Assembly (NCBI RefSeq): GCF_048403405.1
Contig: NZ_CP183129.1
Reading direction: 5' to 3' (one strand)
DNA from: Escherichia coli
Lineage (GTDB): Bacteria; Pseudomonadota; Gammaproteobacteria; Enterobacterales; Enterobacteriaceae
Length of the DNA: 64,000 nucleotides
Shown here: piece by piece, positions 62,509 through 63,536 of the stretch
How the letters are laid out: each line of letters starts with the position of its first letter
How positions within the stretch are numbered: position 1 is the stretch's first letter
Program-made: the position numbers and the translations under genes
Notes under the pieces: model-generated
Seen by the model: only the letters and a program-made list of their open reading frames with translations
Told to the model about the DNA's origin: nothing
Databases searched by the model: none

Positions 62509-63006
62509 CTACATCTGATATTTTTTATCTCTTAAAGATTCATAAATCCGTTGACAAGTCACTCCTGCGATGTAGCGTTTGTCAGCAATTTCAGCATAAA
62601 GCTGAGCTTCTGCTGCAATATCTCCGAGCATGTTGGTGAGCATTCCTTCGGCGGCTTTGGTTGTTTTGCCTCTGACGGCAGCGGCAAGATTTGCGGTATG
62701 CTGCGCTGCGTCAAGGCGTATGGCATATTTTGTTGCTTCGGCACGCAGCTGGTTAACACTATCAGACAGATCAGCAGCCCTGGCAGAAATTTCAGCGGCT
62801 TTCTGTTGTGCATCTTTAACAGCCTCATCACGGGATATAGTTCGCCCCTGTTCAATTATTCGAGCAGCAAATTGGACATTTACCTCTTGAGATAATTCGG
62901 CAGCATCACGCTCCGCCCATTTTTTTTGCCATCCTCTGTCGCTCCAGACATTACCTACGACAAATCCTACCAACACGAGCAAAATCACCGTGAATATCTG
63001 ATTCAC
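62509..63006 (-). CDS. Rz: i-spanin Rz
   Basis: 165 aa, N-terminal [20 protein letters not shown] then coiled-coil; 4-bp overlap with endolysin gene. Confidence 0.85.
62559..62828 (-). CDS. Rz1: o-spanin Rz1 embedded in Rz (+1 frame); start approximate
   Basis: Embedded ORF with lipoprotein-type signal [11 protein letters not shown] and Pro-rich mature part. Confidence 0.65.
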
Positions 63007-63536
63007 TGTTCTATCCCCCAGCAGGTTAATGCACTCTCCTGGTCACGACGAATAACCTGACCGTAACAATTATTTGAACGAATGCGGCAATCACGTCCAC
63101 CGTCCTTTATCCACCAGCGAATCGCCTCGCATGCGCCTTTACGATCACCGGCATTAAGCCGCTTATAAAACGTCGACGGAAAACACTTACCAGGGCCAAT
63201 GTTATAGGGACAGAATGACGCGATACCGGCTTTCTGTGGCTCGGTCAGTGGAACTTTTATATTGCGCTCCACCCATGCCAGCGCCTTATCCCGCTCAATG
63301 GCGTTAACCTGGGCGCATTTTTCCTTCGACAGTTTCATTCCCGGAATAACAGGTTTACCGTCCACCATCGTTGCTCCCCGACAGATGGTCCATATGCCGG
63401 AGCCATCGCGGTATGCAGTGGTGTGATTCCCCTCTTTTTCATCCAGAAACTGATCGAGAATGTCAGGGGCAGGAGCACTGGCGGCAATCAGTGCCAGAAC
63501 AGCAGCCGACAGGCTGTATCTGATTTTTACGTTCAT
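63003..63536 (-). CDS. endolysin, GH24 lysozyme with N-terminal signal-anchor (SAR-type)
   Basis: 177 aa [22 protein letters not shown]...; lysozyme core motifs; recalled similarity to lambdoid RrrD/RrrQ. Confidence 0.85.

Follow-up and report, generated by a model that had tools for sequence, protein, structure and literature searches.

Probable distal part of a Qin-type lysis cassette, with a putative SAR endolysin and a nested o-spanin, in a lambda-like prophage of Escherichia coli

Several endolysin families of phages that carry Shiga toxin (Stx) genes have been predicted to be signal-arrest-release (SAR) enzymes similar to R21 of phage 21, accompanied by pinholins and by an Rz1 frame embedded in the Rz gene (PMC8136144), and in the published genomics the predicted R21-like SAR endolysins of Stx-phage relatives are paired with pinholins (PMC8136144, PMC10462455). 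In the cryptic Qin prophage of Escherichia coli K-12 the lysis genes are found in the order essQ-ydfR-rrrQ-rzpQ(rzoQ)-cspI (loci rrrQ b1554, rzpQ b1553, rzoQ b4689, essQ b1556). Here we describe their counterparts at one end of a stretch of 64,000 nucleotides from E. coli (RefSeq assembly GCF_048403405.1, contig NZ_CP183129.1), referred to as the window, in which the same genes, order and overlaps are present apart from one segment discussed below. Positions 62509-63536 contain, by ORF (open reading frame) calling, exactly two minus-strand ORFs, an endolysin followed by an i-spanin (the equivalent of Rz), and very probably represent the distal part of the lysis cassette in the late operon of a lambdoid prophage of the Qin/phage-21 type. 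The initial annotation had already called this region a lysis cassette, which is borne out by the matches of its products to a lysozyme (PF00959), to an Rz-like spanin of the DUF2514 and phrog_312 families and to another Rz-like spanin, phrog_11621. The genes are real and intact, the system is one that has been described before (rrrQ/rzpQ/rzoQ of Qin, the phage 21 paradigm and the embedded spanins of lambda), and the significance of the locus is small beyond the quality of annotation.

The endolysin matched the PF00959 profile over positions 2-125 of 125 with 86.4 bits (cut-off 22.3, E=2.6e-24) and also phrog_7, a family of endolysins, while in the NCBIfam scan it gave just a sub-threshold match to the endolysin of a gene transfer agent and the other proteins of the cassette gave no match. 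Its catalytic triad, E35-GNHTTAYR-D44-GSGIW-T50 (Glu-8aa-Asp-5aa-Thr), fits the GH24 pattern Glu-8aa-Asp/Cys-5aa-Thr, and the three residues are unchanged across an alignment of 34 homologues with 77-93% identity. All eight cysteines of the body (positions 52, 74, 109, 118, 136, 150, 157, and 172) are equally invariant in these 34 sequences. They fit an enzyme predicted to work in the periplasm, where this feature of the RrrQ family might provide as many as four structural disulfides or, possibly, some redox control. The family also has a variable insertion flanked by cysteines (residues ca. 149-157), which is the part with the lowest confidence in the model that AlphaFold2 produced from the 34-sequence alignment. 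An N-terminal extension of the endolysin was considered, but a TAA stop in the same frame, 9 nt ahead of the ATG, rules it out.

The protein begins with MNVKIRY, in which K4 and R6 are basic, and 18 uncharged residues lead from there to Asp25. The initial annotation had recognized here an uncharged hydrophobic segment of the SAR type, and the description holds, the run after K4 and R6 being rich in Gly, Ala, Ser, and Thr. These four amino acids make up 59% of residues 8-24, to be compared with 62% in the anchor of RrrD and R21 and 18% in the transmembrane domain (TMD) of Rz. Of the 34 aligned endolysins, 32 have an uncharged run of 18-19 residues (16 and 13 in the remaining two), and the putative anchor has a column identity of 0.80, against 0.89 for the enzyme body and 0.40 for the n-region. 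With phmmer, residues 31-174 of the endolysin align with residues 31-163 of R21 (3HDE) and RrrD (4ZPU), and because the alignment begins at residue 31 in both, the candidate anchor coincides in position with the SAR domain of these enzymes. In the AlphaFold2 model residues 11-30 form two short helices packed on the enzyme body, with a predicted local distance difference test score (pLDDT) of 94-95; the model superimposes on full-length R21 and RrrD over 171-174 columns with a template modeling (TM) score of 0.70, and on the version of R21 from which the SAR domain was deleted (3HDF) with a TM score of only 0.52. This segment is free of cysteine, and so are the N-termini of all 34 homologues, which points to an activation mechanism of the R21 type rather than that of P1 Lyz, based on disulfide isomerization. 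We are therefore rather confident that the N-terminus would be retained as a SAR anchor, a reading favored by its R21-like position, its conservation, the predicted packing as in R21, the absence of cysteine and the nature of the possible cleavage sites, dealt with next.

A different explanation would be that the segment is an ordinary cleavable signal peptide of the Sec pathway and that the product is a soluble periplasmic lysozyme, restrained by something other than a membrane tether. The hydrophobic core has just ca. 14-15 residues, typical of the h-region of signal peptides, and the abundance of small residues generates candidate sites for the (-3,-1) rule, IAA↓S and AAS↓A here (the arrow marks the cut) and AGA↓S in the K-12 allele. 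However, R21 too carries an AIA↓S-like motif, and it is reportedly not processed in spite of it, while in our endolysin both AXA sites, at residues 21 and 23, have Pro as the next residue. Signal peptides of this kind would also have to be reconciled with a segment whose length is kept in nearly all the aligned sequences, whose conservation is close to that of the mature enzyme, unlike that of the n-region, and that AlphaFold2 places within the fold with high confidence, as in full-length R21. Besides, a constitutively active muramidase secreted to the periplasm would make the timing provided by the holin pointless, and the partner holin belongs to the pinholin family, whose members are unable to release a cytoplasmic enzyme and are typically paired with SAR enzymes. 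Altogether, we consider cleavage distinctly improbable.

Some observations do weigh against the retained anchor. One is the AAS↓A site itself, which after Ser20 satisfies the (-3,-1) rule. Another is the short hydrophobic core: on the Hessa scale the putative anchor sums +1.3 over 15 residues and +5.6 over 19 (-3.0 and -0.2, respectively, for the TMD of Rz), and the 19-residue value, which predicts poor stable insertion, compares with +0.8 for RrrD and R21. The packing of the anchor by AlphaFold2 may have been learned from 3HDE. Finally, we found no direct experiment on an RrrQ-type endolysin in the literature searched, and nothing on rrrQ/ydfQ as a SAR enzyme, the single relevant paper being limited to induction and the null phenotype in K-12; the SAR status of this type of endolysin rests on analogy with R21.

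The initial annotation had placed the partner holin outside the window, beyond position 64000, and this is indeed where we located it. There is no holin in 63537-64000 on either strand, the ORFs found there being the 3' end of a gene for a DUF1327 protein and an antisense ORF without a TMD. In genomes identical to the window, in which positions past its end can be numbered on as window-equivalent, essQ lies on the same strand at 64414..64629, i.e., ca. 414-629 bases past the window end. Its 71-aa product matched PF04971 (Bacteriophage P21 holin S) with 115 bits (cut-off 26, E=1e-33), begins with MKSMDK, a dual-start arrangement, and is 93% identical to EssD of DLP12. By its sequence, the partner holin is thus a member of the S21 pinholin family (class II holins of about 71 aa with two TMDs). 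The claim that the release of SAR endolysins is a matter of pinholins instead of canonical holins stands only in part. The partner found here is of the pinholin family, but the exclusivity is too strong, as both kinds of holin can serve a SAR endolysin and N4 gp61 complemented both large-hole-holin and pinholin lysogens (PMC12642591). The dependency is actually reversed, it is the pinholins that need a self-exporting endolysin of the SAR type.

The i-spanin gene starts with a GTG that overlaps the stop of the endolysin by 4 nt (GTGA) and is preceded at 7 nt by GGGGGA. Its product matched DUF2514 (PF10721, E=1.9e-38) and phrog_312 (Rz-like spanin, E=3e-58), and consists of a single N-terminal TMD (the one with a Hessa sum of -3.0), a body predicted to be periplasmic and a single cysteine, C151. 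Nested within it, in the +1 frame, is the o-spanin, equivalent to Rz1, which the initial annotation had also noticed as a lipoprotein frame inside Rz. With an offset of 193 nt it runs from 0.39 L to 0.90 L of Rz, L being the length of the i-spanin gene; for embedded o-spanins the typical limits are 0.4-0.5 L for the start and 0.9-1 L for the end (PMC6139136), and its placement is therefore within the usual range. The ATG has a GAGG 9 nt upstream, and the signal sequence comprises basic residues, a hydrophobic core and a lipobox (LTSC) with the predicted lipidation at Cys23. The residue at +2 is Val, not Asp, which implies sorting to the outer membrane. The mature protein would have 62 aa, among them 9 Pro and two cysteines (Cys36 and Cys40), so that C151 of Rz and C36/C40 of mature Rz1, all predicted to be periplasmic, are available for intermolecular disulfides.

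Overlapping frames of this size can be open by chance, and the fact that this one is unannotated by RefSeq and its pipeline PGAP (Prokaryotic Genome Annotation Pipeline) and in the records of phages 2H10 and PhiR63_1, together with the lack of matches in Pfam or NCBIfam, might be taken to indicate that it is no gene. However, embedded o-spanins are known to be missed by gene callers (PMC6139136, PMC8136144), the frame is annotated in K-12 as a putative lipoprotein (rzoQ, b4689), and it matches phrog_11621 (Rz-like spanin, E=2e-8). When the codons of Rz were shuffled synonymously (n=5000), an alternative-frame ORF of at least 84 aa appeared in 91 cases (1.8%) and one resembling a lipoprotein in 26 (0.5%). 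Moreover, we used the Rz protein to retrieve 80 related loci from IMG/VR, and wherever the Rz gene could be placed in them, at Rz identities as low as 69%, the nested frame was open and had a lipobox. At 69-74% Rz identity both the signal and the mature part of the o-spanin have diverged, and what is kept are the Cys, a 10-residue core and a 10-residue motif. Variation of Rz at codon positions 2 and 3 is suppressed in the overlap; among 20 distinct alleles, third positions varied at 4 of 85 sites inside it and at 13 of 76 outside. On the strength of the shuffling and of the conservation across related loci we reject a chance origin, which is barely credible, and the lipoprotein o-spanin of the initial annotation is upheld.

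Table 1. Features of the lysis cassette and of the adjoining insert. Coordinates are window positions; "window-equivalent" ones were read from genomes identical to the window.
Feature	Coordinates	Strand	Basis or context
rrrQ-type endolysin, 177 aa, ATG start	63003..63536	-	GH24/T4-type lysozyme, PF00959, phrog_7
Putative SAR anchor, endolysin codons 7-24, uncharged, weakly hydrophobic	63465..63518	-	Composition, conservation, AlphaFold2
rzpQ-type i-spanin (Rz equivalent), 165 aa, GTG start	62509..63006	-	PF10721, phrog_312, TMD score
rzoQ-type o-spanin (Rz1 equivalent), 84 aa, fully inside Rz, +1 frame	62559..62813	-	phrog_11621, lipobox, conservation
DUF1327 (YdfR-family) gene, 183 aa, 3' end in window	63858..64000 (full: window-equivalent 63858..64409)	-	PF07041, phrog_2091
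Antisense ORF86, 86 aa, convergent to DUF1327 gene	63650..63910	+	phrog_2572; ORF, between DUF1327 gene and endolysin
Terminator-like hairpin + T8 (CGCCGC...GCGGCG TTTTTTTT)	63933..63966	+	23 nt past ORF86 stop, inside DUF1327 3' coding region

If these genes work as their relatives do, late transcription antiterminated by Q would run through essQ and the DUF1327 gene and then through R, Rz, and Rz1. RrrQ would be exported by Sec and stay tethered, inactive, in the inner membrane by its weakly hydrophobic N-terminal segment. Once the S21-family pinholin EssQ triggers and the membrane potential collapses, the uncleaved SAR segment would leave the bilayer and refold onto the catalytic body, in the manner of R21 and as the cysteine-free anchor suggests, rendering the muramidase active. 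With the murein degraded, the complex of Rz in the inner membrane and Rz1, the outer-membrane lipoprotein, would fuse or disrupt both membranes and the cell would burst. Of this scheme, the sequence itself gives the ORFs, domains, motifs, the conserved nested frame, the synteny and the identity to a sequenced phage; the topology, the lack of cleavage, the release triggered by depolarization and the action of the spanins are what we infer from knowledge of the respective families.

The genomic context is what would be expected for a late-operon cassette. Comparison with strain EC28 shows core genes from one end of the window as far as prfC, after which comes a lambda-like prophage that has genes for tail, head, terminase, lysis, and Q. 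Its replication and immunity genes continue past the window end, as seen in E. coli TUM1226, a strain matching the window at 100% over its last 15 kb (49000-64000). The Q antiterminator and late-region context are found upstream of the cassette in a genome identical to the window. The 2.2 kb around the cassette are 100% identical in several complete E. coli genomes, where the annotations read rrrQ (lysozyme), rzpQ (DUF2514), and cspI, and a cassette of the Qin/Stx-phage type is present, at least in part, in ca. 4000 of 5426 complete genomes of the species. The prophage of strain EC28 has a head/terminase region unlike the one in the window.

Whether the cassette is used in this host is a separate question. 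In the lambda-like tail module an IS1 transposase (ca. 50268-50965, plus strand) has inserted with a tail protein gene on one side and the minor tail U gene on the other, and near 35300-39500 the side-tail-fiber and tail-fiber-assembly genes are truncated, the tail-fiber genes being pseudogenes. Because of the IS1 and of the truncated tail-fiber genes, the prophage is probably defective for virion production, its lysis genes being intact nonetheless, and this counts against a working cassette, since lysis may never be executed in this strain. Three further points tell in the same direction. The start codon of the endolysin has no Shine-Dalgarno sequence; a 321-nt gap separates it from the DUF1327 gene, with loss of the ATGA by which ydfR is coupled to R in K-12; and the deletion of rrrQ in K-12 had no phenotype in a study of vesicles and peptidoglycan (PMC12287860). 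All of them, and the terminator-like hairpin and antisense ORF that lie between holin and endolysin, could be accommodated if the cassette were an inert remnant, with genes intact by descent and without a use in lysis in this strain, like Qin in K-12. Yet none of the four lysis ORFs is damaged, the sequenced phage 2H10 has the very same R and Rz proteins (100% identity) and an EssQ matching at 69/71 positions, and genes for Q, replication, and immunity are present. We regard the inert remnant as unlikely, and in any case it would bear on the use of the genes in this host and not on their identity as lysis genes.

The same prophage shows other traits of the Qin type. Adjoining the tail-fiber genes, at the prophage end nearest prfC, is a DNA invertase, a PinQ-like protein of the recombinase family (34574-35164, plus strand), as in Qin and e14. 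Directly downstream of Rz is the cold-shock gene cspI, and then come ymcF, ynfN, and gnsB, the usual cargo between lysis and terminase genes in prophages of this type. The cspA thermoregulator of Rfam was found at 61886-62292 (minus strand, 112 bits, above gathering), spanning the 5' untranslated region and the coding region of cspI; besides it, the Rfam scan gave only chance-level matches. Elsewhere in the window, between ettA and nadR, there is a 4.2-kb accessory islet (9517-13775), absent in strain EC28, that codes for a LysR-type regulator, an aldo/keto reductase, a short-chain dehydrogenase, a small SRPBCC-like protein and a small secreted protein.

The sole unusual feature of the cassette is the segment between holin and endolysin. 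Homology to K-12 is lost at 63546, 10 nt upstream of the endolysin start, and is regained within ydfR at window-equivalent 64202, so that a mosaic segment of 655 bp (63547-64000 and on to window-equivalent 64201) replaces the 90 bp found between ydfR and rrrQ in K-12 Qin. As a result of this segment the DUF1327 protein is extended to 183 aa (PF07041, E=7e-42; phrog_2091 matched over 1-183 of 183). PGAP gives its gene as an incomplete pseudogene (window-equivalent 64074-64409), though it is intact over the 183 aa and appears as a coding sequence in phages 2H10 and PhiR63_1. The antisense ORF86 has a GAGG 5 nt upstream of its ATG, matches phrog_2572 (E=1e-53) and has an annotation both in RefSeq (WP_001306174.1) and in PhiR phages, where it is called "DUF1823 containing protein." It is open in a copy with 93% nucleotide identity, where the indels are restricted to the flank. 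Its presence in only 8 phage records, all with at least 90% identity, makes its coding status no better than plausible. The hairpin was read from the sequence directly, its 12-nt loop being above the limit of the scan, which hence left it unreported, and a promoter scan gave nothing convincing for either ORF86 or the endolysin. This arrangement is found in ca. 283 of 5426 complete E. coli genomes, in 9 of 80 IMG/VR loci and in sequenced phage genomes, and from the latter two it follows that the variant is carried by phage genomes. One could imagine that the insert is not a passive moron but a module for the timing of lysis, the amounts of SAR endolysin and spanin made relative to the pinholin being tuned by antisense or convergent transcription or by the DUF1327 and ORF86 proteins, but we find this very improbable.

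Compared with the systems described so far, the cassette is closest to that of two phages. In Escherichia phage 2H10 (NC_049950, genus Glaedevirus) the 2.3 kb with holin-DUF1327-ORF86-R-Rz have 98.8% nucleotide identity, and the proteins are identical at 177/177 (R), 165/165 (Rz), and 69/71 (EssQ) positions; phage PhiR63_1 (PV340573) carries the same cassette with 98.7% nucleotide identity and likewise identical R and Rz proteins, and within it there is essentially no difference between either phage and the window. K-12 Qin has the same genes, with identities of 165/177 (93%) for R, 149/165 (90%) for Rz, 80/84 (95%) for Rz1, and 68/71 (96%) for the holin, and with cspI, ymcF/ynfQ, ynfN, and gnsB in common downstream. 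The differences are that K-12 has a 103-aa ydfR with a stop that overlaps the start of R where here there are a 183-aa DUF1327 protein, the antisense ORF86 and the 321-nt gap, and that the window prophage, unlike K-12 Qin, retains head, tail, and terminase genes.

Endolysins of the RrrQ type are abundant in enterobacterial prophages, including Stx phages, in which lysis releases the toxin. By megablast the cassette is linked to >130 Stx-phage records at 80-90% identity, and the cassettes of Stx-converting phages (endolysin phams 858/838, Rz pham 1301; Pinto et al., 2021; PMC8136144) have likewise a predicted R21-like SAR endolysin, a pinholin and an embedded, unannotated Rz1. Unlike in Stx phages, no stx genes were found in the stretch fetched upstream of the holin, which contains cspB, cspF, and ynfU instead.

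With phage 21 (S21/R21) and DLP12 (EssD/RrrD; structures 3HDE, 3HDF, and 4ZPU) the locus shares the holin family, the endolysin fold and the E-8-D-5-T triad, as well as a weakly hydrophobic N-terminal segment in the same position and an anchor without cysteine. The catalytic domain of the endolysin is, however, only 34% identical to that of R21/RrrD, the anchor is shorter and Ala/Ser-rich where that of the R21 type is Gly/Ala-rich, and both the eight conserved cysteines and a Cys-containing insertion of 7-10 residues near 149-157 are absent in R21 and RrrD. The spanins are unrelated in sequence to RzpD/RzoD of the 21/lambda type, a kinship that we tried and rejected (BLASTP E=8.7 and E=0.53). 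The TMD, the lipobox and the periplasmic cysteines of the embedded two-component spanin of lambda are also present in our pair, but there is no detectable sequence similarity, the i-spanin being DUF2514 and not of the lambda Rz family, and the mature o-spanin has 62 aa with 15% Pro, compared with 40 aa and 25% Pro in lambda Rz1 (PMC6139136). The pair would thus work like Rz/Rz1 while belonging to different sequence families, DUF2514 and phrog_11621.

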